64,000 nucleotides of DNA, from positions 36,558 to 100,557 of the forward strand of contig CAYOEA010000002.1 of the NCBI GenBank assembly GCA_964402995.1. The letters run 5' to 3'. This DNA is from an uncultured Methanosarcinales archaeon. Lineage in GTDB: Archaea; Nanobdellota; Nanobdellia; Woesearchaeales; GCA-2686295. The position numbers and the translations under genes were made by a program. Of the stretch, positions 1,776-61,959 are shown one piece after another. Below the pieces are notes generated by a model. The model saw only the letters and a program-made list of their open reading frames with translations, had not been told where the DNA came from and searched no databases. Every line of letters starts with the position of its first letter. The stretch's first letter is position 1.

Positions 1776-2330
1776 TTGAGAGCACGACGAGACGACAAAA
1801 AAGAGAAATATAGAGATTACAATAGAATAAGTGCTCAAAGACTCGAAAAAGATCAAGATAAACTCAAATTACAACTTCTAATTGAAACATTAACTTCAAA
1901 GTACAATATAGATCCTAAAGAACTACTTTTGGAAGTAGAAAAAGATAGTCTAATTCCAACCAGCATATTCTCAGAAAAATTAAGCACATTAGAAACAGTC
2001 GTCAAATATCTAAAAGAAAATAACGGATTAAAAAATAAAAAAATCGCAGAGCTTGTCGGAAGAGATTCAAAATCAGTATGGCAAGCATATAATTCTTCAA
2101 AGAAAAAACAAGCAGAAAAAATCATTGTGAGCGATATAAAGCACACATTCCCAATTTCTATTCTTAAAAACAAGCAGCTCAGCGTTCTAGAAAACGTCGT
2201 CGCGTATCTCAAAGAACAAGGACTGCAAAACAAAGAGATTTCTGAGTTAATTAAACGTGACCAGAGAACTATTTGGACTGTGCTAAACAGAGCTAAAAAT
2301 AAACGAGGAGGAAATGAAAACATTAGGTAA
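1776..2330 (+). CDS. small protein with two internally repeated HTH-like modules (putative DNA-binding regulator)
   Basis: Two ~55-aa repeats: …LETVVKYLKENNGLKNKKIAELVGRDSKSVWQAYN and …LENVVAYLKEQGLQNKEISELIKRDQRTIWTVLNR. These resemble sigma-70 region 4 / LuxR-type HTHs. Its stop overlaps the start of the giant gene (co-transcription likely). Confidence 0.5.
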   Translation: MRARRDDKKEKYRDYNRISAQRLEKDQDKLKLQLLIETLTSKYNIDPKELLLEVEKDSLIPTSIFSEKLSTLETVVKYLKENNGLKNKKIAELVGRDSKSVWQAYNSSKKKQAEKIIVSDIKHTFPISILKNKQLSVLENVVAYLKEQGLQNKEISELIKRDQRTIWTVLNRAKNKRGGNENIR

Positions 2331-5300
2331 TAAAATCGGACGCCTGGAAAAAGAATTCACACTCCTACATAGTTCTAAGAAGAATCTGTTAGCACAGAAA
2401 AGAAGAAAGGAAATCACCAAGAAAGATCATGATTTCCATAAAAAAATAAACAATAGTGAAAGTCACAAAAAAGCATACCATAAAGAAATTAGTGAGCAGA
2501 TAAACACTGCAAAAATAGAAAGAGAAAGAAGAAGAGAAAGCAATAAAGAAAGAGAAAGAAAACCTGCAATTATTTTGATGATTGGATTAATAGTAATCTT
2601 AAGCACATTAGTAATTGCAAACTTTGAAGGAATAACGGGGTTTGCAACATTTACCAGAGAACAAACATTAGTCATAGAAATGAATGAAAGTTATGGACCT
2701 GGACAATATGAGATTGAATTAGATCTAGAAAATGCAACCAGCCTGAGAGTTAGTGGAATAGGCACAGGAGAGGGAAGAATAAAAGTCTTGCTTGAAATGA
2801 ACGGAACAAATCTAACAGTATTAGATAGATATGTGAATGAAGAAGGAAGAAATAATTTAATTACAGGAATGGTTGTTGGAGATGAATTTACACTACTAGA
2901 AGATATGCTAGAAAATAATGCGAACGAAGAAGTAATAGAAGAAGAAAATATCACTGAAATAGTTGATAATATAGAAACTAATAATGAAACAATAGAAATT
3001 GTGGAAGAAAATAATACAAGCACAAATGCAACAACTAATGAAACAATTAATGAAAACATAAGTGCAAGTATAAATGAAAACATAACAAATAATACCAGCT
3101 CAAATATTACAGATATAAACATAACAATCCCTATTGAGCTAAATACTAGTGAAGAACTAAACATCACATTAAATGAAAGTATAAACTTGAGTTTAAACGA
3201 TACAATAGAAATAGATAATGAACTAAATATTACATTAAATGAAAGTAACAATGAGTCTACAAACATAAGTACAAATGTGACGAGTAACACCACAAGCAAG
3301 GTTACAACCAATGTAACGACTAATACTAGTATGAATTTGACAGTTAATGCTACGACTAATATTACAAGTAATATTACAAGCAATTTAACAAGCAATATAA
3401 GTGCAAACATAAGTGAAAATATAACTAGTAATGCAAGCTCAAATATTACAGACATAAACATAACAATCCCTATTGAGCTAAATACTAGTGAAGAACTAAA
3501 CATTACATTAAATGAAAGTATAATTGAAGAACTAAAAACGATATTTGAAGATGAATGTTTAGAAACATGTGTTGCAACAATATCCAATGCTAAACTAATA
3601 ATCATAGTTGAAGACATGGACTTTACATTAACTCAGATTGTTTATACTAAAAAAATAGATAACAAACCCCCAGTACAAACTAAAAACTTAGAAAACATAA
3701 GCTTCTACAAAGAATATGAAATAAATGCAAGCGAATATTTTGCAGACCCTGACGGAGATGAACTAATCTATGATGTAAAAAGATTAGATGATATAAGAAC
3801 AGTAATTATTGGAAATAGAATAATCTTTAGAACAAATACTACTGGAACATACGAAACTTATGTCTACGCAACAGATGGAGGAAGTTTAGTTAAGAGTAAT
3901 ACATTTACAATTAGAACTGGACTAGAAGAAAATGTGAGTTTAGTGACAGAAAAATCAATAAAAGAAAATGTAACTCAACTACAAGCAGAAATTGGTAAAC
4001 CAGTTAAATGGATTAAAACAGTACAATTAGATAATATTACAGACACAATAATTAACTTACCTGAAAGTTCAAGAAATATAATTGTAAAAGACAACAACAA
4101 CAAACAAGTAAAAGAAGAAAAAATTAGTGTTGTAGAAAATAAAACAAGAAGAACATTAATAGAATATGAAGTAGATAAAGAAATTGAATTAATCAAAAAG
4201 AAAATAGAAAAAGCAGATAAGAAAGATAATTCAAAAGAATCAGGAAAACTAAAATCAAGTCTCATCAAACTAAAAGTAAAAAAACAAGAAATAGTTAGTG
4301 GACAAAAACTAACAGATAAAGGAGAAGAAACTACAGGATCAAAAATACTAAATAGCATCAGAACAACTGTTGCAAACTCAGACTTAACTGGAAGAATAAT
4401 ACAAGAAATACCAGATGCAAAACTAGATCCAAGCATAAAACCAATTGAAGAAGCAACTATTATTCCAGAAGATAAAATAATCGTGATTGAAGATGAACTT
4501 CTTGAAGAAAACATTGTTGAAATTGTAGAAGAAATTATCGAAACAAATGAAACAATAGTAATTGAAGAAAATGTTAAAGAAATAGTAAATGAAACTGTAG
4601 AAAAAATTACTGATATAATTGAAGTAATAGAAGAAGAAAATATTACAACGATTAATTCAACAATTGATGTTGAACTAAATAGCACTTCAGAAATAAAAAT
4701 TATTGAAGAAGAAAATAATACATTTCTAACAAATATTACAGAAACAAATAACACAACAAGAAACGCAACAATCCAAATAGAAAATAATACGAAAGAAATT
4801 ATTGAAGAAATAATTAATGAAACTAATAAAACAAATGAAACTATAATAGTTGAAGAAATTATTGAAGAAGAAACGCTAATAGAAACGCCTGATATAACAC
4901 AAGAAATAATTATTAGTGAAGAAGTGATAAATGAAACTGAAGACATAATAATTGGAGAAGAAAATAATTATAATTCACCAACAAATATTGAAGAAGGAAT
5001 AGGAATTATAATTGAAGAAACAGCTGAAGAATATATCATAGAGTATGAAACGGAAGCTCCAGAAATTATAGAAGAAGAAATTAATGAATATAAGAAGAGA
5101 GTTACAATTAGTTCCACATTACACTACACAGAAATCTTATCCTACACAAACATAACACCATCACCAAAAGAAAGCATAGGATTACACTGGTTAGTAAACG
5201 GAAGCAGAATAGAAATGAAGAACATCACTTATGTGGATGCAAATGAAGATGGTCTGGTTGAAAAAATAGCATGGATCACACCACACTTATCAAACCAAAC

Positions 5301-8214
5301 ATTCGAAATTACAATCACAGTTCTGAATGTACAAAGTTACCCTCTAGTTGGAGCATATTGGACTGTTAGGTTAAATACTAGCGGACAAGCAGACTTAGAA
5401 ATTACACCATTTAACTACACCACATTCTGGCCAGAACCAAACGACTTTGGAAACTTAGAACATGACTTAGAATTTGTTAACTTTAGTTGTGGAAATACAA
5501 TGTTAAATGATCAACTATGGTTTACAACAAATGTGAGTTGTGCTGAATTAAATAATATTAGTTGTTATTATGAAAATGAGAGTAATAGAACAATTGCAAA
5601 GTATGATGAATTAATGCAAACAAATCTTTCAACTTGGATGGAATCAATAATTTTATTCAACTACACTTGTGATGAAAATGTTAGTTTATGGACTGATAGA
5701 GTAAAAACACCAGGAGCACACTATATTAACTTCACATTCGGGCCAAGCAGTGCACATGCACAAAACTGGGCTGTAAAGAGCGCCACATCTATAACCACTA
5801 ACGTCACAGTCAATATTAGAAGACCAGGCGGAACAAATGTGATTACAGGAGGTTTCATGACTCTAAGCGGCACAAGCGGGGATACAGAAGAATGGCACAA
5901 CACAACATGGACTTATGATTACTCCAAAGACTGCCAAGAAGAAGGAGACTATGAATTATATGTAGAAGTACTAAGTGAAGGAAATTCAGAAACTCAAAAA
6001 GACATAAGTGGACTTTCAGAAGCAATAACTATGTGGGTCGATCAATGTACAATTGCAGGACTTGGATATGCAGATTGTAGAGTTCATGTATCAAGTAAAA
6101 ACACGAATGCAGACAAAGACTTTGGTACAAGACTAGATTTAATGAATAGTAATTGTAATATCACAAGTGTAACGCACGAAGGATCAGAGTACCATACAAC
6201 AGAAGGACTAAATAGTTGTACTGGTGGAGAATGTGGAACTTGGATAGAAATATACCATGACGTTGGAACAAGCGACAATACAGACGATACTTACTTCGAT
6301 ATAAGATGTGATGATGGAGCTGATGATAACACTCCAATGATGATGGATTTAGCAGAAACATGCGGACCTTCAAGTTGTGGAGAAGCAACAGTAGGACTTG
6401 GAGGATATGATGATTGTTCAAATCCAACATGTACAGATGGGTACACTTACATTGGAGATGATAGTGTAGAATCACTTGGAGGATTCACACTCATAACTTA
6501 TGAAATAGGAATCTTAGATACATGGGATTGGAATACTGTAACAACATACAATATAGATTGGGACTCAAGTCAAGAAGATTGTGACTGTTACAAAGGAGTA
6601 GGATATTGGAATATTGGTGGAGATGTAGTAACTTGTTGTGAAGATGATGGAAGTGAAAATAAAACAACAAGAAATGTAGATGAAAGTACAATAGATAATG
6701 GATATACAGATAATACAAGCGATGATGGATGTTGTGATACAAATGATAAATGTGTAGATACAAGTATTTGTTATATATCAGGCGATGTTAGCACAGACAT
6801 AGATAGTGATGGAGATGAAGATTATTGTAATGCTGGAACATGGTTTGATTGTAATACAGACTCAGAATGTGCAATAGGAATATTCTGTAATGCAACTAAT
6901 GATTGTGAAGTATCATACATAAACTTAAGTTATGAATTACCAACACCAACAACAAATACAATTCAAATTAACAATCAACAAATAATTAATGTAAGTGTTA
7001 GTTCATATGGAAGCACAGTAGACTCATGTACGCTAGAATGGAATGGTATAAATGAATCAATGGGGAAAATCGGAAGCGGAACAGAAGTAAGTTGCAATAT
7101 TACAAAAACAACTATTGATGGAACAACTTATAATTACAAAGTCTTTGCAAATAATTCAGTTGGAATAATAAATAATACTGCTCTAAGAAGTTTCACAGAG
7201 AATAGTTTACCAACAATAACTTACCATAACATAACACCTGTTGCACCAGATACAACTGATGACTTAAATTGTTCATTTACACTTATAGATTCAGAAAATA
7301 ATAGTTTAATTGCATATTATCAATGGTATAATGGTACAAATCAAACATTATCAGGATCAGTTCCAGTAACAAGTGGAATCATAGGCTCAACAATCCTAAG
7401 CGCAGAAAATACAAACAAAGATGAAAACTGGACTTGTGAAATAACACCTTATGACAACTATGAAAATGGAACTGCAAGTAATATATCTAGAATCATAAAT
7501 AATAGTGTCGCATCGGTAACATTGTTAACGCCTACTGATGGACAAACATTAATAGAATATACTAATAGAACACCAAGACTTACTTGGACTGCAAGCGATC
7601 CAGACGGAGATAATATGAGTTACACTATATGGATATCTGAACAATCAGACTTTAGTACAATTAATCAAACAACAAGCGGAATTTCAGATATAAAATATAC
7701 TATGAATGATCTTAAAGTGGACACAATATATTATTGGATAGTTGAAGCATTTGATGGAGTTTCAAGAGTAAATGCCACTTCCGAGTTCAACTTCACAATA
7801 CAAAGTTACGAATCAATAACATTTGTAGTTGATACAGTAAACTTCCCTGAATTAGAAATTGGAGAAACAAACGATACAGACACAGATGCAATCACACCAT
7901 TTAAGATTAGAAATACAGGAAACGTTTTTGTGAACTTAAGCATAAATGCAAGTGAACTATGGGATGGTGCGAGTGCAGCCATACCAAGTGTATACTATAG
8001 ATTTAAGGCCGATGAAGTAAGTGGTGAAGAAGGAGCATTTACAACCGGAAGCAGCACTATGAGTTGGACTAACATGGTTTCAACAGCCACATCGTTCATT
8101 AAAGACTTGAACTTTGACTATGATACAGATGAAGCAGAAATTGATCTTTATCTGACAGTACCTCCACATGAAATTGCAGGTCAGAAAAATTCAACAATAA
8201 GTATAAGCACATAG
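2314..8214 (+). CDS. giant (1966 aa) membrane-anchored surface protein with a sequon-dense stalk, Ig/PKD-like domains and Cys/Asp-rich modules
   Basis: The N-terminus is basic, followed by a TM/signal-anchor PAIILMIGLIVILSTLVIANF. A long run of N-x-S/T sequons follows (NITSNITSNLTSNISANISENITSNASSNITDINIT…). Later segments include DPDGDELIYDV and TWTASDPDGDNMSYTIWI (PKD/FN3-like). Aa ~1230-1530 is a Cys- and Asp-rich block (CEDDGSENK…CCDTNDKC…). Confidence 0.8.
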   Translation: MKTLGNKIGRLEKEFTLLHSSKKNLLAQKRRKEITKKDHDFHKKINNSESHKKAYHKEISEQINTAKIERERRRESNKERERKPAIILMIGLIVILSTLVIANFEGITGFATFTREQTLVIEMNESYGPGQYEIELDLENATSLRVSGIGTGEGRIKVLLEMNGTNLTVLDRYVNEEGRNNLITGMVVGDEFTLLEDMLENNANEEVIEEENITEIVDNIETNNETIEIVEENNTSTNATTNETINENISASINENITNNTSSNITDINITIPIELNTSEELNITLNESINLSLNDTIEIDNELNITLNESNNESTNISTNVTSNTTSKVTTNVTTNTSMNLTVNATTNITSNITSNLTSNISANISENITSNASSNITDINITIPIELNTSEELNITLNESIIEELKTIFEDECLETCVATISNAKLIIIVEDMDFTLTQIVYTKKIDNKPPVQTKNLENISFYKEYEINASEYFADPDGDELIYDVKRLDDIRTVIIGNRIIFRTNTTGTYETYVYATDGGSLVKSNTFTIRTGLEENVSLVTEKSIKENVTQLQAEIGKPVKWIKTVQLDNITDTIINLPESSRNIIVKDNNNKQVKEEKISVVENKTRRTLIEYEVDKEIELIKKKIEKADKKDNSKESGKLKSSLIKLKVKKQEIVSGQKLTDKGEETTGSKILNSIRTTVANSDLTGRIIQEIPDAKLDPSIKPIEEATIIPEDKIIVIEDELLEENIVEIVEEIIETNETIVIEENVKEIVNETVEKITDIIEVIEEENITTINSTIDVELNSTSEIKIIEEENNTFLTNITETNNTTRNATIQIENNTKEIIEEIINETNKTNETIIVEEIIEEETLIETPDITQEIIISEEVINETEDIIIGEENNYNSPTNIEEGIGIIIEETAEEYIIEYETEAPEIIEEEINEYKKRVTISSTLHYTEILSYTNITPSPKESIGLHWLVNGSRIEMKNITYVDANEDGLVEKIAWITPHLSNQTFEITITVLNVQSYPLVGAYWTVRLNTSGQADLEITPFNYTTFWPEPNDFGNLEHDLEFVNFSCGNTMLNDQLWFTTNVSCAELNNISCYYENESNRTIAKYDELMQTNLSTWMESIILFNYTCDENVSLWTDRVKTPGAHYINFTFGPSSAHAQNWAVKSATSITTNVTVNIRRPGGTNVITGGFMTLSGTSGDTEEWHNTTWTYDYSKDCQEEGDYELYVEVLSEGNSETQKDISGLSEAITMWVDQCTIAGLGYADCRVHVSSKNTNADKDFGTRLDLMNSNCNITSVTHEGSEYHTTEGLNSCTGGECGTWIEIYHDVGTSDNTDDTYFDIRCDDGADDNTPMMMDLAETCGPSSCGEATVGLGGYDDCSNPTCTDGYTYIGDDSVESLGGFTLITYEIGILDTWDWNTVTTYNIDWDSSQEDCDCYKGVGYWNIGGDVVTCCEDDGSENKTTRNVDESTIDNGYTDNTSDDGCCDTNDKCVDTSICYISGDVSTDIDSDGDEDYCNAGTWFDCNTDSECAIGIFCNATNDCEVSYINLSYELPTPTTNTIQINNQQIINVSVSSYGSTVDSCTLEWNGINESMGKIGSGTEVSCNITKTTIDGTTYNYKVFANNSVGIINNTALRSFTENSLPTITYHNITPVAPDTTDDLNCSFTLIDSENNSLIAYYQWYNGTNQTLSGSVPVTSGIIGSTILSAENTNKDENWTCEITPYDNYENGTASNISRIINNSVASVTLLTPTDGQTLIEYTNRTPRLTWTASDPDGDNMSYTIWISEQSDFSTINQTTSGISDIKYTMNDLKVDTIYYWIVEAFDGVSRVNATSEFNFTIQSYESITFVVDTVNFPELEIGETNDTDTDAITPFKIRNTGNVFVNLSINASELWDGASAAIPSVYYRFKADEVSGEEGAFTTGSSTMSWTNMVSTATSFIKDLNFDYDTDEAEIDLYLTVPPHEIAGQKNSTISIST

Positions 8215-8235
8215 ATTTAAAGTCAATAATTAATC

Positions 8236-8243
8236 TTTTTTTT
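8236..8243 (+). terminator. T-rich tract (T8) downstream of the giant gene, putative archaeal terminator
   Basis: cttttttttc lies immediately 3' of the stop at 8214. Confidence 0.3.
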
Positions 8244-8292
8244 CATTAAATTAAATATATTTAAAAAAGAATTCAAATTAATAAAAATTAAA

Positions 8293-17772: not shown

Positions 17773-18360
17773 ATGATTAGACGTATTGAGAAAAAGAAAG
17801 AAAAAATGAAGAAAATTTGGATGGGAGCAATCACCATATTCTTAATGGTTATAAGTATGCTTGGAGTCATGATGTACAATGACGATGAAGGTTCTGATTT
17901 AGAATATAATGGAACTAAATTTAGCTATCAAAACAATGTTTTTTCAGCAAAGCTTGGCGGAAAAACACAAATCTTTGGAAATTTACCTCAAGAAATTGAA
18001 AATCTAACTGTTAGCGCAGGACTTAAAGAACAATTATCAAAACAAACAATATACTTAACATTTGATCCAAATTCAAGAGATCAAGATTTATCATACATGG
18101 ATTTAATTAGAAAAGACTTTTCAGATAATCTAAACTCAATTGTTATCAATGGAATTACAGCTAACTCAAGCATATATCAATTACCTATCATTGATTGTTA
18201 TTATGCAAGTAATTTAACTAGTGTTTTCAAATTCGAAGTAAGTAATGAAACTAGAATCGATATAGAGGGAGATTGTGTTATTCTAAAAGGAGAAAATATT
18301 GAACTGATTAAACTTAGAGATTACGTCTTATATACTTATTACGATGTAATTGTAAAATAA
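17773..18360 (+). CDS. hypothetical N-terminally anchored secreted protein (paralog A)
   Basis: Single N-terminal TM (ITIFLMVISMLGVMM). C-terminal …NETRIDIEGDCVILKGENIELIKL… aligns with …ETSRIRSEGRCIILEYAQNESIKV… of the next gene. Confidence 0.5.
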   Translation: MIRRIEKKKEKMKKIWMGAITIFLMVISMLGVMMYNDDEGSDLEYNGTKFSYQNNVFSAKLGGKTQIFGNLPQEIENLTVSAGLKEQLSKQTIYLTFDPNSRDQDLSYMDLIRKDFSDNLNSIVINGITANSSIYQLPIIDCYYASNLTSVFKFEVSNETRIDIEGDCVILKGENIELIKLRDYVLYTYYDVIVK

Positions 18361-18396: not shown

Positions 18397-19029
18397 ATGG
18401 CTGGAAAACTAGAAAAACAAGAAAAAGAAATGGAAAATAAAACAAGCAAACAATTAATTCAGTTTATCGTGTTTGTTTTAGTAATAGCAGCCATTGCTTA
18501 TGCGGTCTATAAGTTTACAGCACCTGCAGACACTCATCAATATGATAAGTATAATGGCTATGACTTTATGTATGATGAAGAACAAAAACTGTGGTTTTCA
18601 ACATTACAAATAGAAGAACAACCATTCATCATCCCATTTTACTTTCATCCAAAAGACTTAGAATACATACCGGTTCAGAAAGATATTGAAGATACATTAT
18701 ATCAAAAGAAACCAAAGAACGTAATCATAACTTTACCTTTTAATGATACATCAAGCATAGTAATTGCAGCAATAGAACTATCAAAAATTACAGGTGAAAG
18801 ATTTAAGATTCTAGAGATTCCAACAAGTAGCGCTTTTAATGAATATCTACAAGGGTTTCCACTTGCAACATGCGATAATTCATCAGATGATACACTTGTT
18901 ATTAACTTTGAAAAAAGTGAAACTAGCAGAATTAGAAGTGAAGGAAGATGTATTATACTTGAATACGCACAAAATGAAAGCATAAAAGTTGCAGATAATT
19001 TAGCATATCACATTCTAAAAATAATGTAA
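18397..19029 (+). CDS. hypothetical N-terminally anchored secreted protein (paralog B)
   Basis: N-terminal TM (LIQFIVFVLVIAAIAYAVY). Shares C-terminal motifs with 17773..18360. Confidence 0.5.
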   Translation: MAGKLEKQEKEMENKTSKQLIQFIVFVLVIAAIAYAVYKFTAPADTHQYDKYNGYDFMYDEEQKLWFSTLQIEEQPFIIPFYFHPKDLEYIPVQKDIEDTLYQKKPKNVIITLPFNDTSSIVIAAIELSKITGERFKILEIPTSSAFNEYLQGFPLATCDNSSDDTLVINFEKSETSRIRSEGRCIILEYAQNESIKVADNLAYHILKIM

Positions 19030-24636: not shown

Positions 24637-26598
24637 TTATACATTCTCATAACAATTGTTTGATGTTGAATTAAAAGCACAAGAACGAAATTTACAAGAA
24701 TCATTTGAACAAGAATCTTCATCAGACCCGTAAGAAGAACAAGTAGTTCCACAAACAGTACAAATATCTGAAGAATAGCTCCAATAATGATCCGAAGGAG
24801 GATTAAAGTTACATGGATTATCATCACACTCTTCAAAAGAATAATAATCAATTCCCATACTACAATCCAAACATTTACTATGATCTAAAGACCAAAACCT
24901 TGAACCTGTAAACTCACAAGGATTATCATCACATTCAGACCTACTATAATCGTAAGTAATAACTGGTGGAGAAAGTATTTTTTTAACTTCTGAACAATCA
25001 AAACATTGAGTTTGATCTTTGGACCAATAAGTTTTTGCTTCTACTACCTCACAAGGATCAGTTTCACAAATACCTTCAATAACATAATCTTTTGCCTCAT
25101 CAGTACCAGAACAAGAGTAACATGCACCTTTACCTAAACCAGGATCAAACCAAATACATTCACTTGGAAATCCGCAAGAATCTTTTTCACAAGAATCTTC
25201 ATTATCATAAACCATGCATTTATTTGTATTTTTTTCAGGACAAGCATTACATCTATCTTTACCAGATGTAGTCCAATGACAATCAGAAGTTTTTACACTA
25301 CAAACATTCGCACTACAATCTATTTCTCCATCATAAGAACCGCAATAAGATACTTTGTCACATTTTGAACAACAAACAAAGCTATCAGCACAATAATTAG
25401 TTTCTGTAATGCAATCACTAAAAGAAATTGTTCCAATAGAAGTATCTCCATTAATTAAAGTAGTATTATCAATACAAGACCAATCAGATTCTTTAAAAGC
25501 ATCACCACATTCAAGATAACCTTTTGAGCAAGCTTCACATTTAGACACACAACCATTCCCAACAGGGTATTCATAAGGCTTACAATTTTGAATTTTTGAG
25601 ATATTTCCAAAATAATGACCATCCCAAGTTCTAATAATTTCAACATCTTGAGATAAAATGTTTATATAATTAAAATCGATTTGAACATCTAAATTTGTTA
25701 GGTAATTTAAATTTTGATTGTAACCTTGATTATATTCACAAAGAAGATGTATTTCATTATCCTTAAATCTAAAAGCATAAGGATCATTAGCAGATCTACA
25801 AGTTAATTCTTCCCCACCTAAAGTAGCCTTTATATTAACTGTATCCCAAAGTGCTCTATTTGTTGACTGTGCATAACCACAATCTTGATCAGGAGATACA
25901 ACAGATCCTTTACCAACATTTGATACAGTCATAAAGAAAACAGGTTTAAGATATTGTCCAAAATTTATTAATTCATAATGTAACTCGGTAATTGCAACTG
26001 GTGAGCCTTGACCTGAAGAATAAGTTTTATCTTGAACCTCGCAAGCTTTAGTTCTAATATCGTCAATAGTATAAGTATCAATACAAACTTCATCAGATAG
26101 AACTGTTCTATAAGGATAACAAATAGCAACATAAAGCTCAGTCCCAGGACTTTCTTTTTGTCCCTTAATTGTCTTTGCAGTAAGTCGTGGTAAATAATGG
26201 TAAATTGAGTCACCTTTAGGAAAAATAGGTGATTTTCCTTCAAGAGTTATTTTCTGCCAATCAGCAGCAAGACTGTTTAATGTTTGAATTGATTTTGTTC
26301 CATTAAAATAAAATTCATCAAACTCCCAAGTAATCAAAGCAGGTTTTGATGTATTAATTGAGAATGCACCTTTGTTTGAAATTAAAAGACCAACAGGAAA
26401 CTCAGAATCTTCACGAACTTGATCAGGAGGTGAATTTCTTAAAAATTCAAAAACTAAACCATCTTTTCCTGAATTAAAATTTATATCTTTAACATTTGGA
26501 TCATAATTATTACTGCCAGAGCCATTTTGACCAGCACCACATGCAGTAAGCATAAACATAGAGATAAATAGTATTAATAATAGTGATAGTTTTTTCAT
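24637..26598 (-). CDS. secreted lipobox-containing surface protein, paralog family member 3, with C-terminal tandem Cys-rich modules
   Basis: Signal peptide FMLTAC. Family motifs ICYPYRTVLSDEVCIDTY…C and GQGSPVAITELHYE…MTVSNVGKGSVVS. The C-terminal ~270 aa holds at least 5 repeats of a ~28-aa Cys module (CDDNPCEF…W…C.DCS). Confidence 0.65.
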   Translation of the reverse strand: MKKLSLLLILFISMFMLTACGAGQNGSGSNNYDPNVKDINFNSGKDGLVFEFLRNSPPDQVREDSEFPVGLLISNKGAFSINTSKPALITWEFDEFYFNGTKSIQTLNSLAADWQKITLEGKSPIFPKGDSIYHYLPRLTAKTIKGQKESPGTELYVAICYPYRTVLSDEVCIDTYTIDDIRTKACEVQDKTYSSGQGSPVAITELHYELINFGQYLKPVFFMTVSNVGKGSVVSPDQDCGYAQSTNRALWDTVNIKATLGGEELTCRSANDPYAFRFKDNEIHLLCEYNQGYNQNLNYLTNLDVQIDFNYINILSQDVEIIRTWDGHYFGNISKIQNCKPYEYPVGNGCVSKCEACSKGYLECGDAFKESDWSCIDNTTLINGDTSIGTISFSDCITETNYCADSFVCCSKCDKVSYCGSYDGEIDCSANVCSVKTSDCHWTTSGKDRCNACPEKNTNKCMVYDNEDSCEKDSCGFPSECIWFDPGLGKGACYSCSGTDEAKDYVIEGICETDPCEVVEAKTYWSKDQTQCFDCSEVKKILSPPVITYDYSRSECDDNPCEFTGSRFWSLDHSKCLDCSMGIDYYSFEECDDNPCNFNPPSDHYWSYSSDICTVCGTTCSSYGSDEDSCSNDSCKFRSCAFNSTSNNCYENV

Positions 26599-28532
26599 TA
26601 TCGAACCCTCATTTGAGTGCCTTTCTTTAAAGTATAAGCATAATCAACATTAACAGCAACTGTTACAGTACGTTTATCCATAGTACTTCCAGATAAAAAA
26701 CTATTCAGACCATTCTTTGCAACTAAATCACAAGAAACCGCATCTATTTTATAATCTAACAATCCGCCTGCGCCAAGAAAAGCAACTCCAAATGAATAAG
26801 TGTTTTCAATTGGATCGTGATAAATTGGATCATAAGTACAATTAATTAGTTCAGTATCTGAAGGAACAGTAACAGTTAATGAACGAATATAATTTAATTT
26901 TCCTTGAGGCCAAACATTCTCTAATTGAACGGTAAATAAATGAATAAAATTATTCTCATCATCTAAATCAGTAGGCATGTCTAAACCAATAGGTAGATTT
27001 TTCTTAGATAAACGAATAGCTATCGGACCATCAGAAGAACTTGCTTCTGCAACACGAGTTTTCAAATCTAAAAAATTGTAAATATCTTTTCCTTTCTTAC
27101 CAATAACCACGTTATCAGTGTATACATAGGCAACTGTTGATGTTTGAGTAAAGAAAAATGAAATCTCAAAAAACATATTATGATACCCTGGTTTTATAGT
27201 ACCATTTCCAAATCTACATCTTAACTCATCAGATCCTTCATAAATAATAGTTGACTTTGCAGGACTAACCATGCCAAAAATTTTAAGTTTATCTTTTTCA
27301 ATATAACAAGAATGATAAGTTTGAACCGCTCCTTCAAAACTCTTTGCACTAATATCAGCCAAAACATCTATTTTTTTATTAGCATATAATGTCTCAGATA
27401 AAATACGAACATTAGTTAAATAAATACCTGGTTGTTCACCTTCATTATTTTCAGTTGTAGAACCATATGGATCATAAGCAATAGTATCATTAATTTTATT
27501 TTTAAAATTTTTAAATCCTGAATTAATTGAATCAGCTACTTGCTTTGCATTGCCCCAAACAAAATCTTTAGCGACATACAAACCACTCATAGTATCTGAG
27601 CCTTCAACATTAATATTAGGTGAAACATCACTTGCAAAAGCATCAGATGTTAATAATTGAATACATAAAAGTAATATAAATAATTTGAGAATTCCAGTGC
27701 CCCATTTATGAATCTTAGAATCAGGTTCAGAAGTATAAACTAAATACCAAGGCCAAACTGGAAAGAATATTAAGAGGCTAATTAAAGTTGTATTTCCTTT
27801 AGCAAAATAAGTCACTAATGGAGGAACAGCCAAAGCTGCTAACGATACAAAAATTATTGTCCAGGTTGTAGAAGATAAACCTGATTTGTAAATAAAAGTT
27901 ACTGCAACAAAAGTCAAACCTAAATATAAAAGAATAATAGGAATAATTGAAGATGGATTTCGACCAAAATTAAATATAAAAGCATCTGCTGCATGTAAAA
28001 GTAAAGTTAAGAGTAAAAAAAAACCAATATTAGAAGTTGTACCAGATGATTCTCCAGATGACTTGACTGAATTAGCAGCACCTTTTGCCAAACCTTTAGC
28101 TTTTGAACCTAAAAATTTAGTAAGAGCAAAAGCTCCACCACCAACAATAGCCCCTACTTTTAGGGCTTTACCTAAACCTTTCTTTACTTTATCAGATTTA
28201 GATGAACCAGATGAACTAGGGGAATCAGATGAACCAGAACCGCTGCTTGTTTTAATATTACTTAAATCAATACCTGAAATGATTGATTCATAAGAAGATT
28301 TATCTGCACCTGCAGCTTCAAGTTCTGAAAGGATATTTTTTATTTCGGTTTTATCTTTATTTGCATTCTCTGCATACAATTTCGCCATGCTAGAATCTTC
28401 TTTTCTTTGGGAAGAAATATACTTTTCTTCATTATATTGTAAACTACTAACTGCTGGATATAAATCATTAATTAACTTAGAATGGTCTGCATTACTAGAA
28501 GTGTTCTCACCACCTTCTTGATCTTCGGACAT
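26598..28532 (-). CDS. polytopic membrane protein with cytoplasmic S/G-rich N-terminus and extracellular C-terminal domain related to the paralog family
   Basis: ~170-aa low-complexity N-terminus, ≥4 TM helices (aa ~170-290). The C-terminal domain contains DGPIAIRLSKKNL…FTVQLENVWPQGKL, comparable to the GGPxxI…N.G.GK motif. Confidence 0.55.
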   Translation of the reverse strand: MSEDQEGGENTSSNADHSKLINDLYPAVSSLQYNEEKYISSQRKEDSSMAKLYAENANKDKTEIKNILSELEAAGADKSSYESIISGIDLSNIKTSSGSGSSDSPSSSGSSKSDKVKKGLGKALKVGAIVGGGAFALTKFLGSKAKGLAKGAANSVKSSGESSGTTSNIGFFLLLTLLLHAADAFIFNFGRNPSSIIPIILLYLGLTFVAVTFIYKSGLSSTTWTIIFVSLAALAVPPLVTYFAKGNTTLISLLIFFPVWPWYLVYTSEPDSKIHKWGTGILKLFILLLCIQLLTSDAFASDVSPNINVEGSDTMSGLYVAKDFVWGNAKQVADSINSGFKNFKNKINDTIAYDPYGSTTENNEGEQPGIYLTNVRILSETLYANKKIDVLADISAKSFEGAVQTYHSCYIEKDKLKIFGMVSPAKSTIIYEGSDELRCRFGNGTIKPGYHNMFFEISFFFTQTSTVAYVYTDNVVIGKKGKDIYNFLDLKTRVAEASSSDGPIAIRLSKKNLPIGLDMPTDLDDENNFIHLFTVQLENVWPQGKLNYIRSLTVTVPSDTELINCTYDPIYHDPIENTYSFGVAFLGAGGLLDYKIDAVSCDLVAKNGLNSFLSGSTMDKRTVTVAVNVDYAYTLKKGTQMRVR

Positions 28533-28539
28533 GATAAAA

Positions 28540-29733
28540 TTAATCCTCCTCTACTACAACTCGCAGTTCAGCTATATCAACAGAACTAGTAGGAATTAAT
28601 TCAATAGAATTTGTTCCTGGTTTAATATAATCATCCAATACTTTTTCATATGATAGTTCATCAGTGCTAATATGTTTTCTAACACCATTAATGATATATT
28701 CTAATTTCTTTTCATCATCATTAACAAATCTAACTTCCATAGTTATATTATAGTCTTCATCAAGTTCATTAGTATAATTTCCATCAAAGAAAATATCTTC
28801 ATCAACTTCAAAATAATAAACAGGATAAATCATTTCTTCAAGTCTTGTTGTGACAGAAACTCTATCAATAAGATATGAACCTTCTGAAACAATAAATTCT
28901 AATTCATTTTTATCTACCATAGCTTCGTCTTTATCAAGAGCAATAACCTGATAAACACCACAATCACCAAGACCAGAATAAGCTTCTTCACCATTAAAAT
29001 AAATCTTTAAAGTTCCTGCATCTGCAAGGCTACAATCAGGATCAAATCTGAATTTAATTTCTTCAATATTCCTATATTCTGTTTCTGAAAGATAAAAGAA
29101 TTGTCTGCTTCTACTATTTGTTAAATCTAAAACTTGACCAATAATACTAAGATCAGTTAATTCATAACGATTCGTTCTCCAGAACGCAAAACCAGGACTT
29201 GAAACTCTAAAAGTTAAAAGATTTTCATCATCTAAATAATCTTGCGGCAACATGATAGGGTTTGGTGTGCCCTTAGCGATTTTGCCATTAAATATTTCAT
29301 AACCATTAAGGAAGACTTCAAGATTTCCTAAAGATTCTTTTACATTAAAAGATAAAGCCATATCAGTTGTTAATCTCTTTTTAATTTCAAAAGAAAGATT
29401 AAACTCTTTTGTGCCTGAAAGACCTTTTTGAACATAAATAGATTTAATTGTTTTAATATTAGTGCCAACATTTTCCGCATTTATCCTAAATGAAGGTAAA
29501 TCATGTTCTCGATAATCAAATTTTAAGTAATCTAAACGACCAACACGTTCTTTAAGCAATAATGGATCATAGTCAATATCATCATCATCTGAACCAGAAG
29601 TATAATTTTCTTCACCTAAAAGTAGGGCTCTTTCCTCAGGAGGAAGTAATAAAATATATAGAACCATGATGACTCCAATAAGAATCAATAGAACAGCCGC
29701 ACTACCCGCTGCTTTTCCTTTTTTGTTATACAT
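28540..29733 (-). CDS. type-II (N-in, single TM) membrane-anchored extracellular protein, first gene of the surface operon
   Basis: N-terminal TM AAVLLILIGVIMVLYILLL followed by a ~350-aa extracellular beta-rich region. Only an 8-bp gap separates it from the downstream gene. Confidence 0.5.
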   Translation of the reverse strand: MYNKKGKAAGSAAVLLILIGVIMVLYILLLPPEERALLLGEENYTSGSDDDDIDYDPLLLKERVGRLDYLKFDYREHDLPSFRINAENVGTNIKTIKSIYVQKGLSGTKEFNLSFEIKKRLTTDMALSFNVKESLGNLEVFLNGYEIFNGKIAKGTPNPIMLPQDYLDDENLLTFRVSSPGFAFWRTNRYELTDLSIIGQVLDLTNSRSRQFFYLSETEYRNIEEIKFRFDPDCSLADAGTLKIYFNGEEAYSGLGDCGVYQVIALDKDEAMVDKNELEFIVSEGSYLIDRVSVTTRLEEMIYPVYYFEVDEDIFFDGNYTNELDEDYNITMEVRFVNDDEKKLEYIINGVRKHISTDELSYEKVLDDYIKPGTNSIELIPTSSVDIAELRVVVEED

Positions 29734-51973: not shown

Positions 51974-53584
51974 CTATTTGTCTTGACTTATATTCTTTTT
52001 TGTGTCAGACGCCACTTTAATTTGCTTTTTTGAATCTTTTTTCGCTTTAGCGTTTTTAGATTTTACAACTTTTTTATTCTTTGCAGCATCTTTAGATTTA
52101 AATATAGTATACATTAAAGGATTTTTCACTCTACGACAAAATTCATCAGGTGTACAAACCCTCATATCTTTGTAATAAGCCTTATTATCGCAATTAGGTG
52201 GTGGAGGTACTTTTTTATTTTTATTTAGTTCTTTATACCTTAATTGACCATTTATGTAGACTTGGCGTAATTCCTCAACATTTAGTTTATTCCATTCATC
52301 AAGACGTGTTCTGATTTCAGCCATATTCCAACCTACATTAAGTAAAAAGTTAGATAATACAAATATAGCTCTTTTTTTACCATCTTCAATACCTTTTAGT
52401 ATATTCTTTATACATGGAGGAAATAATTCTTCAGAAATAGCCTCGGAAATCTCATCATACTCTTTTTGCTCTCTTTCTTTTTTGAAATTGTGCTCTTCTT
52501 CTACTTCAACATTAAAATCATACGCTTGAAGAACTAAAGTGTCTGTTTGATTTTTAGGAGCATCTTTATCTAAGAATTTTGATAAAATTTTGACATTATC
52601 TGGCTTTGCACTCTCTTTATTAAAAGTTAGAATATCACTTAAAGGAATAGGAACAGATACTAATTGCGATTTTTCATGAAATGAAAAAGGCATTCTGAAT
52701 AAATGCCGAGATGAAATAAGAAGAGTATCTAATTCAATTATAGCAAATGGGTTAAATTGAGAAATATAATCTTTTTTAGGATTTACCTTACTAGGGCTAC
52801 AATTACAAAGAGACTTTAATATTTTTTTCTCTATTATTTTAGAACATTTAGGACAAACAAGATAATTTTTTTCTTCAGTTGATTTAATAGAATAGCCACA
52901 CACACAATCAAAACTTGCAATATGAACTTTATCTGCTTTAATTCTAACTTTACAATTCTTACAAGATGTTTGAACTAATTCCTCTTTTTTATCAGGAAAT
53001 AGTTCATGTAATTTAGATAATGATATTTCATAACCATCAAATGAAATAATATCTCCTTTTACTTCAATGAATTTTCTGATATAATCTAAAAGATACTTTG
53101 CAATACGCATGGGAGCTTCAGGAAATAATTTTTTTGTATCTTTACCACCTATTTTGTCAGGGAATGCTTCAAAAGGAACTGCTATGTGAAAACCTTTGTT
53201 TCCAGAGAACTTTGCAGAAATAGATACTATATTGTGTGCTTGTAAAGCTTTAACAACTAAATGAGCTGTTAATTTAGAAAAATCCCAATTAGGACAATCA
53301 ATGTCTAAAACTAAATCCCAACCTTTTCTTAGTTCATCAAGATCAATTGGTTTAAGATTTGTGCCTAATTGAAGAGGGTTATACCATCTTTCTTCAGAAC
53401 AATGAAAAGAAGTTGTGCCTCTTTTTGCATGAGCAAGAATATCGCTGTTATAATTCAAAGTATCAGGACGTTTACCAAAACGATCATTATAACGAACTGC
53501 AACCTCTCTATCTTCAGCTACACGAAGTATTTCATTCTGAATATCTTCTCGCTTATAGAATTTTAAAGTTGTACTTATGAACAT
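51974..53584 (-). CDS. priS: archaeo-eukaryotic primase catalytic subunit (PriS-like) with Zn-knuckle and a C-terminal 4-Cys extension (possible PriS-PriL(CTD) fusion)
   Basis: AEP motifs DLVLDIDCP (DxD) and SGNKGFHIAVPF (SGxRGxH). Zinc module CKNCKV…CVCGYS…CPKCS. The C-terminal ~150 aa holds four Cys (PPCIKN…PNCDNK…RVCTPDEFC), compatible with an Fe-S PriL-CTD/PriCT-like domain. Confidence 0.65.
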   Translation of the reverse strand: MFISTTLKFYKREDIQNEILRVAEDREVAVRYNDRFGKRPDTLNYNSDILAHAKRGTTSFHCSEERWYNPLQLGTNLKPIDLDELRKGWDLVLDIDCPNWDFSKLTAHLVVKALQAHNIVSISAKFSGNKGFHIAVPFEAFPDKIGGKDTKKLFPEAPMRIAKYLLDYIRKFIEVKGDIISFDGYEISLSKLHELFPDKKEELVQTSCKNCKVRIKADKVHIASFDCVCGYSIKSTEEKNYLVCPKCSKIIEKKILKSLCNCSPSKVNPKKDYISQFNPFAIIELDTLLISSRHLFRMPFSFHEKSQLVSVPIPLSDILTFNKESAKPDNVKILSKFLDKDAPKNQTDTLVLQAYDFNVEVEEEHNFKKEREQKEYDEISEAISEELFPPCIKNILKGIEDGKKRAIFVLSNFLLNVGWNMAEIRTRLDEWNKLNVEELRQVYINGQLRYKELNKNKKVPPPPNCDNKAYYKDMRVCTPDEFCRRVKNPLMYTIFKSKDAAKNKKVVKSKNAKAKKDSKKQIKVASDTKKNISQDK

Positions 53585-59662: not shown

Positions 59663-59790
59663 TTTGGTAAGATGCTTGTTTTTATAAACCTTATGTTTTT
59701 TTTGTTATTGTTCAGTAGTTAATTTTAATATAATTTATTATTTTTAAAAGAAAAAATCATCTTAAAAATAATTATTTGTCGTCGATAGAT

Positions 59791-59820
59791 AGGGTGTGAC
59801 CCCTTGATTTCCACTGGAAG
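59791..59820 (-). promoter_or_regulatory. origin recognition box (ORB1, full-length)
   Basis: Minus strand reads cTTCCAGTGGAAAtcaaGGGGtcacaccct. That is the mini-ORB core TTCCAGTGGAAA plus a downstream G-string, matching the archaeal ORB consensus. Confidence 0.65.
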
Positions 59821-59940
59821 ATTATTTTAAGAGAAAATGGGTGTTTGTATTTTTATGTTTAATATAATTTTTAGTATAAAGTTTATGTTTTTAGTATAAA
59901 GTTGATCATAAAATTTTGTTAATAAAATAAATCATATATC

Positions 59941-59970
59941 CCTCTCACCCCTTGATTTCCTTAACTGAGT
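59941..59970 (-). promoter_or_regulatory. degenerate origin recognition box (ORB2)
   Basis: Minus strand reads ctcagttaaGGAAATCAAGGGGTgagaggg. It shares GGAAATCAAGGGGT with ORB1, in the same orientation, 150 bp away. Confidence 0.45.
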
Positions 59971-60629
59971 AGAATTAATTATTTGAACTTTGTATATTTT
60001 TAAGTTTAGTTTTTTTATTTTAATTATTGTTCTATATTATTTTTTGTTCTTATCATTTGTTATTTATTAAAATTTAGAAAATATCTTTTCTCCTCTTAAT
60101 TATTTTTTAATTTTGATTCTTTTCACTTTTTTCTCCTTTAACCTCATTTAACTTCATTTAATTTTATTTAACTTAAATTATACATTTCATTCAAGTTTTC
60201 TTCTTGTTCATGATTATTTTGTTTAATATTTTTATTTTCTTCTTATTTTATTTTTATTTATGTTTCTTCACCATTTTCTTCTTTCTAAAACAATTCTTTT
60301 CCTTTTTTCTTTCTCTTCTTATTTCTCTTTTTCACATTTTTATTTTATTAATATTTATTTTCTTCTTCTTTCTTATTATTTTATTTATCTTTATTTATCA
60401 TTATTTATTCTCTTCTTCTTTTTTCTTTATTATTATTATATAATATATATATATATATTATTTCTATATAGAAAATATATATATAATATATATAATGAAA
60501 AAAAGTTGAATAAAAATATATGTTGGAAAATATAGTTTGAAAACACATAATTAATTTGTCGAGAATAAAATGAAGAAAAAAGGAATAAAAAAATAAAAAT
60601 AAACAAACAACTTGAATTTTATTGAACAT

Positions 60630-60656
60630 ATCTCCAAGAGAAATGAGGGTGTGTGT
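60630..60656 (+). promoter_or_regulatory. possible inverted degenerate ORB on the cdc6-proximal side of the DUE
   Basis: Plus strand tCTCCAaGaGAAATgAgGGtGTG matches ORB1 at ~13/19 positions in the opposite orientation. Confidence 0.3.
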
Positions 60657-60726
60657 GTAGTATATGATTAATAATATATTTAGTGGTGACATAAGATTTA
60701 TAAACCTATGTTTCATTTGGAGATAA

Positions 60727-61959
60727 ATGTCAAAAAATAAATTAGGAAAATTCTTTGAAACATACCTTGAGAAAGATTCATTATTCTTAGATAAAGGCGC
60801 ATTACAAGCTTCATACATGCCAGGAGAAATTCAACATAGAGATGATCAAATTGAACAAATTGCAGGAATTTTAGCTCCAGTATTGAAATTAGATGTACCT
60901 TCAAATTTATTTATTTATGGGAAGACAGGAACTGGTAAAACTTTAACAGTAAAATATATTTCAGATCAAATGTTAAGTTTAGCAAAAGAAAAAAAATTAC
61001 CTGTAGAAATATTATATTTAAATTGTAAATTAAAAAAAATTGCAGATACAGAATACAGGTTAATTGCAGAACTTGCAAGACATTTTGGAAAGGCAATACC
61101 TGCAACAGGACTTCCAACAGATGAAGTATACAACATATTCTATAAAGCAGTAGATGAAAAAAAAAGAAATATTATTATTGTTTTAGATGAAATAGATGAA
61201 TTAATTCGAAAAACAGGAAATGATTTAATATATAATTTAACAAGAATAAATACTTCACTTGTAAATTCAAAAGTTTCTCTAATTGGAATAAGTAATGTGT
61301 TGACATTTGTGAATGTATTAGATCCAAGAGTGAAATCTTCTTTAAGTGAAGAAGAAATAGTATTTCCACCATATAATGCAATACAAATTCAAAATATATT
61401 ACGTTCAAGAGTTGAAAATGCGTTTGTAGAAAATGTAGTTGAATCAGGAGTTGTTGAAAAATGTGCTGCTTATGCTGCAAGAGATCATGGTGATGCACGA
61501 AGAGCGCTTGAACTAATGAGAGTTGCAGGAGAACTTGCTGAAAGAAAGAATCAAAAAACTGTGATGATAGAAAATATTGATGATGCAGAAGATAAAATCG
61601 AAAAAGACAGAGTATTAGAAATAATCAAAAGTCAACCTAAACAATTTCAAATAACATTATATGCTATTATGAAACATAAACCTAAAAATTCTAAAGATAA
61701 AATTTTCACAGGAGATATTTATGATAAGTATAAAGATATATGTTCAAGAGTTGGACTTAGACCTTTAACTCAAAGAAGAGTATCTGATATAATTGCAGAA
61801 TTTGATATGCTTGGAATAATAAATTGTAGAGTATTATCAAAAGGAAGATATGGTAGAACAAGAGAAATAACACCATCAATACCTGAAAGTATGGAAATAA
61901 AAGCTTTAGAAATACTTGAAGAAGATTTGGAAATTAAAGGAAAAAATGAGTTATTCTGA
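60727..61959 (+). CDS. cdc6: Orc1/Cdc6 origin-binding initiator
   Basis: Walker A GKTGTGKT, Walker B IIVLDEIDEL, sensor regions and a C-terminal winged helix (…RVGLRPLTQRRVSDIIAEFDMLGII…). Confidence 0.9.
   Translation: MSKNKLGKFFETYLEKDSLFLDKGALQASYMPGEIQHRDDQIEQIAGILAPVLKLDVPSNLFIYGKTGTGKTLTVKYISDQMLSLAKEKKLPVEILYLNCKLKKIADTEYRLIAELARHFGKAIPATGLPTDEVYNIFYKAVDEKKRNIIIVLDEIDELIRKTGNDLIYNLTRINTSLVNSKVSLIGISNVLTFVNVLDPRVKSSLSEEEIVFPPYNAIQIQNILRSRVENAFVENVVESGVVEKCAAYAARDHGDARRALELMRVAGELAERKNQKTVMIENIDDAEDKIEKDRVLEIIKSQPKQFQITLYAIMKHKPKNSKDKIFTGDIYDKYKDICSRVGLRPLTQRRVSDIIAEFDMLGIINCRVLSKGRYGRTREITPSIPESMEIKALEILEEDLEIKGKNELF

Follow-up and report, generated by a model that had tools for sequence, protein, structure and literature searches.

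Two sequon-dense, low-complexity stalks in a predicted giant surface protein of a DPANN archaeon

The DNA considered here is a stretch of 64,000 nucleotides (nt) of contig CAYOEA010000002.1 (positions 36,558 to 100,557 of the forward strand, assembly GCA_964402995.1) from an uncultured archaeon placed by GTDB in the Woesearchaeales. It is referred to below as the window. The open reading frame (ORF) 2314..8214 (+) codes for a giant protein of 1,966 amino acids (aa), which probably is a type II (N-in, single-pass) cell-surface glycoprotein with N-glycosylated stalks from a DPANN archaeon related to Woesearchaeota/Nanoarchaeota. The stalks are low-complexity segments crowded with N-x-S/T, the sequon of N-glycosylation. 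Sequons are far more numerous than the composition of the protein predicts and they are kept in orthologues whose stalk repeats are otherwise unrelated. By sequence comparison, the protein is a member of a large DPANN family absent from Pfam and NCBIfam.

An earlier note, made by a model from the sequence and a list of its ORFs, had described a single stalk of ~400 aa. Two stalks were found instead, with folded Ig-like modules between them:

2875..3555, + strand: stalk 1 (aa 188-414), 227 aa, 39 sequons, 39 of its 48 Asn in sequons
4402..5037, + strand: stalk 2 (aa 697-908), 212 aa, Glu/Ile-rich, 15 sequons, 15 of its 23 Asn in sequons

Stalk 1 contains 17 sequons per 100 aa, with Asn most often spaced 4 residues from the next Asn. 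The dense tract that the note placed at aa ~200-420 is thus real (39 sequons), but its description as almost entirely made of N-x-S/T triplets was overstated, as half of stalk 1 (50%) and 69% of its densest 70 aa are made up of them. The EEIIEE/NETI acidic repeats that it reported downstream correspond to the second, sparser tract.

In the whole protein, 111 sequons (N-x-S/T, where x is not Pro) were counted, i.e. 5.6 per 100 aa, whereas residue shuffles of the same protein yielded 39.2 +/- 5.3 and at most 58 (z = 13.4). Within aa 201-405, there are 39 sequons against 14.0 +/- 2.8 in shuffles (z = 9.0). More than half of the Asn (111/198, 56%) sit in a sequon when ~20% would be expected (binomial p = 4e-28). 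The non-repetitive parts are enriched too, with 57/127 Asn in sequons outside the stalks (p = 2e-10). The reversed control pattern S/T-x-N occurs just 52 times in the protein. All sequons but one (110/111) are located C-terminal to the transmembrane (TM) helix, on the side predicted to be extracytoplasmic. Compared with the surface protein, sequons are 10-fold sparser in the 57 other ORFs of the window (0.55 per 100 aa), where 11% of Asn are in sequons for 12% expected. Individual sites are also conserved: the sequon of N994 (PHLSNQTFE, in module B described below) is invariant in 16/16 aligned sequences and N1034 is a sequon in 13/16. At the scale of the family, all 55 homologues are sequon-enriched: the median density is 4.1 per 100 aa, and the median share of Asn lying in sequons is 51%, for ~17% expected.

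Six full-length orthologues were compared (L003, L004, L005, L006, L007 and L009; L002 is the L003 gene from another sample and L008 is near-identical to L004). All orthologues have the basic tail, the TM helix, domain 1, a C-x-E-T-C motif, modules A and B and 34-38 Cys. Two low-complexity stalks are found at the same two positions in all six, with a length of 167-232 aa for stalk 1 and 181-260 aa for stalk 2. Their repeat units are unrelated: NITS-type in the window protein, ENITT in L006, SPTLNISQEANIT in L004, ESEILNISENTNVT in L003 and NITPEINVTE-like in L005 and L009. With these differing units, the share of stalk Asn found in sequons is 68-100% (pooled 90%) in the six orthologues, for instance in L009 (68/68), L004 (59/60) and L005 (66/69). 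When the window protein is included, the range is 65-100% (pooled 89%). The convergence of unrelated repeat units on N-x-S/T shows that selection acts on the sequon, and indicates selection for N-glycosylation. The roughly constant stalk length suggests a constraint on reach.

The stalk DNA itself is more alike within genes than between them. In four orthologues (L003, L004, L006 and L009), the two stalks of one gene are 72-93% identical over 70-340 nt, whereas stalk 1 sequences of different orthologues mostly have no more than 80 nt in common. Intragenic duplication or conversion would leave such a pattern. The stalks of the window gene have only 26 nt in common.

The window has a GC content of ~30% and the stalks are low-complexity and built of repeats. 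The sequon excess could then be an artefact of composition, produced by AT-rich Asn, Ile, Thr and Ser codons and perhaps by a repeat unit with a chance N-x-T that expanded neutrally. This explanation is refuted by the shuffles, by the local ORFs and by the orthologues, and the enrichment of the non-repetitive parts also runs counter to it, so that its probability is close to nil. The earlier note had named codon bias as the possible undoing of its proposal of dense N-glycosylation. The bias is insufficient, and the proposal is strongly supported by the sequon statistics and the orthologue comparison, glycosylation itself being a prediction.

Members of the family are organised as a membrane anchor followed by domain 1, a first spacer, module A with a helical linker, a second spacer, module B and a variable distal head that, in the window protein, consists of a 24-Cys Asp-rich block and then Ig/FN3-like domains. 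The spacers, i.e. the stalks, are low-complexity arrays of short repeats whose sole conserved property is the N-x-S/T sequon. The following mechanism is proposed. While the spacers are still unfolded, AglB would add N-glycans to most of their sequons, during Sec translocation or afterwards. The product would be stiff, hydrated and protease-resistant 'bottle-brush' stalks, an N-linked counterpart of mucin and serine-rich-repeat stalks, that could keep the folded modules and the head at a distance of tens of nanometres from the membrane. The head may then mediate adhesion to a host cell or particle. The repeat DNA would turn over by in-frame duplication, unequal recombination or conversion, while selection would retain the sequon content and an approximate stalk length of 170-260 aa. 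The 130-nt duplication present in this strain (see below) could be one recent event of this turnover. Besides the distribution of AglB, the proposal draws on the sequon-rich, Ig-like surface proteins with lectin or pectin-lyase heads of a cultivated DPANN archaeon (10.1101/2023.10.27.564410) and on the elevated variation reported for the surface proteins of Nanoarchaeota (PMC6142677).

Several points weigh against this glycoprotein interpretation. The glycans, on the window protein as on any other family member, are predicted from sequence. Sequons spaced 4 residues apart may not all be filled by an archaeal oligosaccharyltransferase. Stalk 2 of the window protein, with 7 sequons per 100 aa, is far poorer than stalk 2 of most orthologues. 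A scan of the ORFs of at least 150 aa found no AglB/STT3 or other glycosylation gene in the 64-kb window. The putative role as adhesin is proposed by analogy. In addition, the AlphaFold2 (AF2) model of aa 1154-1966, built from 7 sequences, is poor (mean predicted local distance difference test score, pLDDT, of 49, and 20-30 in the Cys block), so no binding function can be assigned to the head.

AglB is expected to be encoded elsewhere in the genome, since almost all Archaea are reported to have it (PMC11407970) and one cultivated DPANN archaeon carries aglBDE (10.1101/2023.10.27.564410). Two adjacent small proteins of the window (17773-18360 and 18397-19029, both +), each with one N-terminal TM helix, are also enriched in sequons (9/23 Asn, p = 0.001), which fits an active N-glycosylation system in the organism. 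At two orthologous loci (L002 1458-5533 and L004 3711-6008), a glycosyltransferase of the PMT_2 type (GT-C; 747 and 765 aa) is encoded 1.3-4 kb upstream of the surface-protein gene, and radical-SAM/SPASM and GT9 genes are present in L002 as well. The PMT_2-type enzyme has no homologue in the window, where only a weak C-terminal similarity was seen in ORF 24637-26598.

Outside the stalks, the following parts were delineated in the surface protein:

2314..2562, + strand: basic N-terminal tail (aa 1-83), predicted cytoplasmic, conserved in orthologues
2563..2625, + strand: single TM helix or signal anchor (aa 84-104), from Kyte-Doolittle hydropathy
2626..2874, + strand: domain 1 (aa 105-187), flanked by the ITG motifs GITGFAT (aa 107) and LITGMVV (aa 183)
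3556..4188, + strand: module A (aa 415-625), with the C-x-E-T-C motif, an Ig-like beta-sandwich with a DPDGD loop and a second beta domain with EIGKPVKW
4189..4401, + strand: K/E-rich helical linker, ending in a third ITG motif, DLTGRIIQEIP (aa 691)
5038..5784, + strand: module B (aa 909-1157), family-defining, all-beta, with the invariant sequon N994 in PHLSNQTFE
5932..6906, + strand: Cys/Asp-rich block (aa 1207-1531), 24 Cys, only in the orthologue group
6931..8211, + strand: Ig/FN3-like beta domains at the C-terminus (aa 1540-1966), likewise restricted to the orthologue group; an FN3 match at nt 7552-7785 is sub-threshold

The single N-terminal TM helix announced in the earlier note was recovered as the sole hydrophobic helix of the protein. 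Kyte-Doolittle hydropathy peaks at 2.77 over aa 84-102 (19-residue windows) and no other such segment exceeds 1.6. The tail ahead of it is basic (26 K+R for 13 D+E over aa 1-84), which gives an N-in, C-out orientation. The protein is therefore predicted to be single-pass, with ~1,860 aa exterior to the cell. Across aa 1-190, the identity to orthologues is 37-51%, and domain 1 is conserved in the orthologues as well as in P0018, P0026 and P0045. The same Kyte-Doolittle profile of the whole protein revealed no C-terminal anchor: the C-terminus (...KNSTISIST) contains no hydrophobic segment. Neither a PGF-CTERM/archaeosortase signature (PGF motif, TM helix and basic tail) nor any NCBIfam match was found there.

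The ITG motif, [ILV]-T-G-x-[AVI]-[IVT], occurs 106 times in 62 family proteins for 5.1 +/- 2.2 in shuffles. It is positioned directly after the TM helix and immediately ahead of each low-complexity stalk. In the window protein it is found at aa 107, 183 and 691 (nt ~2632, ~2860 and ~4384), and it is also present in L003-L009 and P0003-P0043. It might serve as a site of processing or a signal for sorting, or form a strand element.

The folded character of the modules is supported by AF2 models, in which both are confident beta-sandwich domains, with a pLDDT of 85-92 for module A and ~80-90 for module B. When the model of aa 396-1160 was compared to the PDB with Foldseek, only generic tandem Ig-like arrays were retrieved, among them titin and bacterial adhesins such as InvE (an invasin), PrgB, ClfA and AgI/II. 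Pfam and NCBIfam searches with the whole protein and with six separate segments gave nothing above threshold. Among the segments named in the earlier note, the PKD assignment at DPDGDELIYDV (aa ~450-540) has no Pfam support, no match to PF00801 or PF18911 being obtained at E <= 5; the AF2 model of this segment is a confident Ig-like beta-sandwich. Its Cys/Asp-rich block was confirmed and holds 24 of the 34 Cys of the protein. At aa 1747-1824, the fn3 model (PF00041) scored 22.9 bits, below its cut-off of 25, and Ig_Rha78A_N 23.9 for 27.4. Sequence searches of the PDB returned for the protein only a weak match of this region to a neogenin FN3 domain (E = 0.005), and nothing for the family profile.

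The stalks could be folded as well. Their regular N-I-T-x periodicity, an Ile content of 15-28% and the near absence of Pro would suit a beta-solenoid or fibre with alternating Ile and polar residues, in which N-x-T would be structural (Asn ladders, Thr caps) instead of a glycosylation site. However, the period varies between orthologues and within stalks (4, 5, 6 and 8 residues), which no single solenoid geometry could accommodate. Position +2 accepts either Ser or Thr, and other residues are almost never found there. The same N-x-S/T excess exists in the globular domains. Finally, the linker and stalk 2 are unstructured or helical in the AF2 model, with a pLDDT below 50. A folded solenoid is therefore very unlikely.

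The family was explored using aa 930-1966 as query, which led to 55 homologues, and its architecture was defined by BLAST of the whole protein against them. Labelled homologues are Woese-, Pace- or Nanoarchaeota or unclassified archaea, except for one 'Bacteroidota' and one 'Nitrosopumilaceae' partial record. Module B is common to 54/55 homologues (aa 926-1153, 30-56% identity). It spans ~230 aa, with invariant columns and the landmarks IEYETEAP ... PHLSNQTFE ... VLNVQSYP. Module A is common to 36/55 (aa ~400-620) and lies N-terminal to module B across a variable linker; its landmarks are C-x-E-T-C, an Ig-like domain with a D-x-D-G-D loop and EIGKPVKW. No paralogue of either module was found in the 64-kb window. 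The family profile (alignment A1), to which the window protein scores 524 bits, detected 291 loci in GTDB species genomes. Among the 80 loci listed, nearly all are labelled Woese-, Nano- or Aenigmatarchaeota and some genomes have several copies. In a search of 1.84 billion representatives of 50% identity clusters, 18,218 clusters were matched at E <= 1e-3, 8,156 at 1e-10 and 2,155 at 1e-30, the looser tiers being inflated by the repeated Ig-like domain. The heads found elsewhere in the family are diverse: LamG, pectate-lyase-like beta-helix, cadherin-like, F5/8-C, PQQ propeller and PKD.

The protein could alternatively form a lattice, i.e. be an S-layer protein with ordinary S-layer glycosylation rather than a projecting adhesin. 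It is sequon-rich, Ig-like and membrane-anchored, it belongs to a family widely conserved in DPANN, and the S-layer candidates of DPANN have been described as Ig-like with many glycosites (10.1101/2023.10.27.564410). However, a total of ~440 aa of low-complexity spacer and a helical linker would be hard to fit in the subunit of a two-dimensional lattice. Interchangeable heads (LamG, beta-helix, propeller and others) and the presence of several copies in some genomes are moreover typical of stalked adhesins or enzymes. An S-layer role is thus judged unlikely.

Repeats are visible in the stalk DNA of the window gene:

3055..3184, + strand: direct repeat copy 1, 130 nt
3358..3424, + strand: imperfect 12-nt tandem repeats, encoding (N-I-T-S)-type tetrapeptides
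3394..3523, + strand: direct repeat copy 2, 130 nt, 92% identical to copy 1, in frame

The earlier note had reported two near-identical segments of ~100 bp. They are real, longer than proposed, and their 5' ends are ~30-40 nt away from where it had put them. The two copies are identical at 120/130 nt with an offset of 339 nt (113 codons). Their 3' 88 nt differ at two positions only (86/88), and the longest identical run is 50 nt. The shorter reiterations that the note mentioned nearby were also recovered: the 12-nt unit AATATTACAAGC is present in 3.4 copies with 86% matches (3358-3398), and overall the 12-nt tandems, located between and before the direct-repeat copies, have 2.3-4.1 copies with 70-89% matches. 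The acidic region at nt ~4500-5100 is made of degenerate 77-nt and shorter repeats with 61-86% identity. The antisense ORFs 2691-3617 (-, 308 aa) and 3975-4946 (-, 323 aa) were rejected as genes and are by-products of the purine-rich low-complexity stalk DNA.

An assembly artefact, which the earlier note had considered, is excluded for the repeat by two independent contigs. Contig L001 (ENA, sample ERZ27315925, MEGAHIT k141) matches the window over 9,651 nt and L086 (ENA, sample ERZ27315904, MEGAHIT k141) over 4,347 nt, spanning all of stalk 1, both with 0 mismatches. The identical 1,966-aa protein is present on two contigs. L086 ends at nt 4347, ~55 nt short of stalk 2. The Logan contig L085 ends at nt 3144, inside direct-repeat copy 1, as expected of a short-k assembler. 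Altogether, stalk 1 has the same sequence in three assemblies, which stem from at least two samples, and stalk 2 in two of them; being consensus assemblies, probably from one site, they are a weak test of length heterogeneity. No variant of the window gene is on record, as its 90% identity cluster has one member. A metagenome scan for close relatives returned one locus, L004, and no strain variant of the window gene there.

The earlier note had seen in the near-identical repeats substrates for slipped-strand or recombinational length variation. They could make the gene a contingency locus, where frequent switching of stalk length within the population, through slipped-strand mispairing or recombination, would serve immune or host evasion. 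Recombination between the in-frame 130-nt copies would remove or duplicate exactly 113 aa. The contigs L002 and L003, i.e. the same orthologue from two samples, have perfect 42-nt tandem units in their stalks, with at least 3 visible copies versus 2. Assemblies also tend to end in or just 5' of stalk DNA (nt 3144 for L085, nt 4347 for L086). On the other hand, the assemblies that cross the stalks are identical and the 90% cluster is single-member. Perfect slippage-prone tandem repeats were not found in the window gene, where tandem units are imperfect with only 2-4 copies and the dispersed repeat, at 92% identity, has an uninterrupted core of just 50 nt. Since all units are imperfect and multiples of 3 nt, this is not a phase-variable (on/off) locus. 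The stalk length of 167-260 aa across distant orthologues suggests a length constraint and not free variation. The difference between L002 and L003 was rejected as a polymorphism: both contain 100-N SPAdes gaps inside the stalk repeats (8174-8273 and 9693-9792 in L002, 2576-2675 in L003), and gaps or repeat collapse by the assembler at perfect 42-nt tandems can give the same pattern. Such gaps imply that the copy numbers from short-read assemblies of this protein family are unreliable. Frequent switching is thus improbable. The view of the repeats as substrates of length variation stands between lineages, where repeat units turn over and stalks measure 167-260 aa, and finds nothing within the strain, whose assemblies are identical. 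Repeat-driven change is documented between lineages, not within a population.

Upstream, the surface-protein gene overlaps another gene on the same strand:

1776..2330, + strand: double-HTH partner gene, 184 aa, whose stop overlaps the surface-protein start by 17 nt
2305..2311, + strand: GAGGAGG, Shine-Dalgarno-like, read from the sequence just 5' of the ATG at 2314

The partner protein has two repeated units and weak Pfam matches (HTH_23 8.5e-6, Sigma70_r4_2 4.5e-5 and HTH_24 6e-5). A homologue is found directly upstream on the same strand in 44/83 related loci. For the 40 pairs whose downstream ORF is long, the distance between the two genes varies from -56 to +21 nt, an overlap of 4-23 nt being the most common arrangement. 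These homologues are DPANN-only, unnamed and apparently unannotated. The two genes are probably translationally coupled and are predicted to be co-transcribed, the GAGGAGG being a putative Shine-Dalgarno motif. P0193, 99% identical to the HTH protein, had seemed to be a strain variant of it; it was rejected as such, since it is the protein of the window itself, in which the TTG start had been translated as Leu.

A further and rather unlikely reading considers the spacers as a distinct, selected class of module, an 'N-linked mucin' shared by the 2,000 or more clusters of the family, preceded each time by an ITG motif, the surface-protein gene being coupled to the HTH gene. The repeat unit may be free to turn over as long as nearly every Asn is kept glycosylatable. 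In its boldest version, the surface protein and the HTH protein would form a contact-sensing pair: by analogy with bacterial anti-sigma/ECF-sigma operons, the HTH protein, with its sigma-70-region-4-like fold, may connect host attachment to transcription in an ectosymbiont. The cytoplasmic tail exceeds 60 aa in 21 of the 40 HTH pairs and is shorter than 30 aa in 14. An anti-sigma-like interaction between tail and HTH protein is therefore possible only for a subset of the family, which weakens this speculation.

The neighbours of the gene pair are archaeal housekeeping genes, coding for tRNase Z, tRNA-splicing endonuclease (EndA), FEN1 and Trm5/TYW2. Farther in the window are Hef, a fused PriS-PriL primase, SecY, Orc1/Cdc6, the PolD small subunit, PheRS, aRF1 and PAN. 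The primase fusion is suggested by a single 536-aa ORF (51974-53584, -) that matches both the small- and large-subunit DNA primase families. The intergenic region 59663-60726, with 18.7% GC, is directly upstream of orc1/cdc6 (60727-61959) and contains a (TA)n palindrome (60426-60504) and the exact 14-mer ACCCCTTGATTTCC at 59799 and 59947; it is probably a replication origin. Three consecutive large ORFs at 24637-29733 (-; 653, 644 and 397 aa) have TM-like segments and no Pfam match, and may likewise encode envelope proteins that are so far uncharacterised. Neither the Rfam scan nor the tRNA scan of the window gave a match.

DPANN archaea presumably live attached to other cells, which makes their surface proteins prime candidates for the contact. 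To our knowledge, almost none of these proteins has been characterised. For a very large family that lacks annotation, the present locus reveals a conserved architecture whose boundaries are exactly defined, and it exposes a conserved regulator-like partner gene. It also brings comparative evidence that the N-glycosylation sites themselves, and no particular sequence, are the selected feature of the spacers. A giant, sequon-rich and repeat-containing surface protein is what specialists expect in DPANN genomes and is not a new system. No description of tandem-sequon linkers in archaea was found in the literature searched. Tandem-sequon stalks kept through repeat turnover, the ITG motif before the stalks and the overlapping HTH partner appear undescribed in that literature.

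The closest resemblance is with the surface proteins of a cultivated DPANN, which are likewise large, with several Ig-like folds and lectin- or pectin-lyase-like heads (10.1101/2023.10.27.564410). They have an N- or C-terminal TM helix and 14-52 predicted N-glycosites, i.e. ~4 sequons per 100 aa, close to the 5.6 counted here, the proteins being likened by description (10.1101/2023.10.27.564410). Low-complexity sequon arrays, which reach 17 sequons per 100 aa in stalk 1 of the window protein, and an HTH partner are not described in that paper (10.1101/2023.10.27.564410).

Archaeal S-layer glycoproteins (Halobacterium/Haloferax SLG, Sulfolobus SlaA/SlaB) are, as here, secreted proteins with N-x-S/T sites and Ig-like or beta domains, and their sites are glycosylated by AglB, as predicted for the window protein (PMC5744192 and general knowledge). 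The haloarchaeal SLG also has a glycosylated low-complexity stalk near the membrane but, unlike in the window protein, this stalk is Thr-rich and O-glycosylated (PMC5744192 and general knowledge). In S-layer glycoproteins, sequons are scattered in folded domains and not gathered in arrays, and anchoring is C-terminal (PGF-CTERM/archaeosortase or SlaB) instead of N-terminal (PMC5744192 and general knowledge). No sequence relationship to them was detectable in Pfam, NCBIfam and PDB searches.

Outside archaea, the Haemophilus influenzae adhesin HMW1 carries dozens of N-linked glycans at N-x-S/T. HMW1C glycosylates this adhesin in the cytoplasm, at sites dispersed over a folded beta-helix. HMW1 has no sequon-array spacers, comes from another domain of life and is not homologous to the window protein. 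Mucin domains and the serine-rich-repeat adhesins Fap1 and GspB are low-complexity tandem-repeat stalks whose sequence drifts while the density of glycosylation sites is kept. Such stalks project a binding region and their repeats evolve by unequal recombination. They are O-glycosylated on Ser/Thr and often Pro-rich, whereas here the N-linked sequon is conserved and Pro makes up at most 6% of the stalks; the likeness is one of analogy, not homology. If sequons spaced 4 residues apart are indeed occupied, the known capacity of archaeal oligosaccharyltransferases would be extended and the stalks would define an N-linked equivalent of the mucin stalk.

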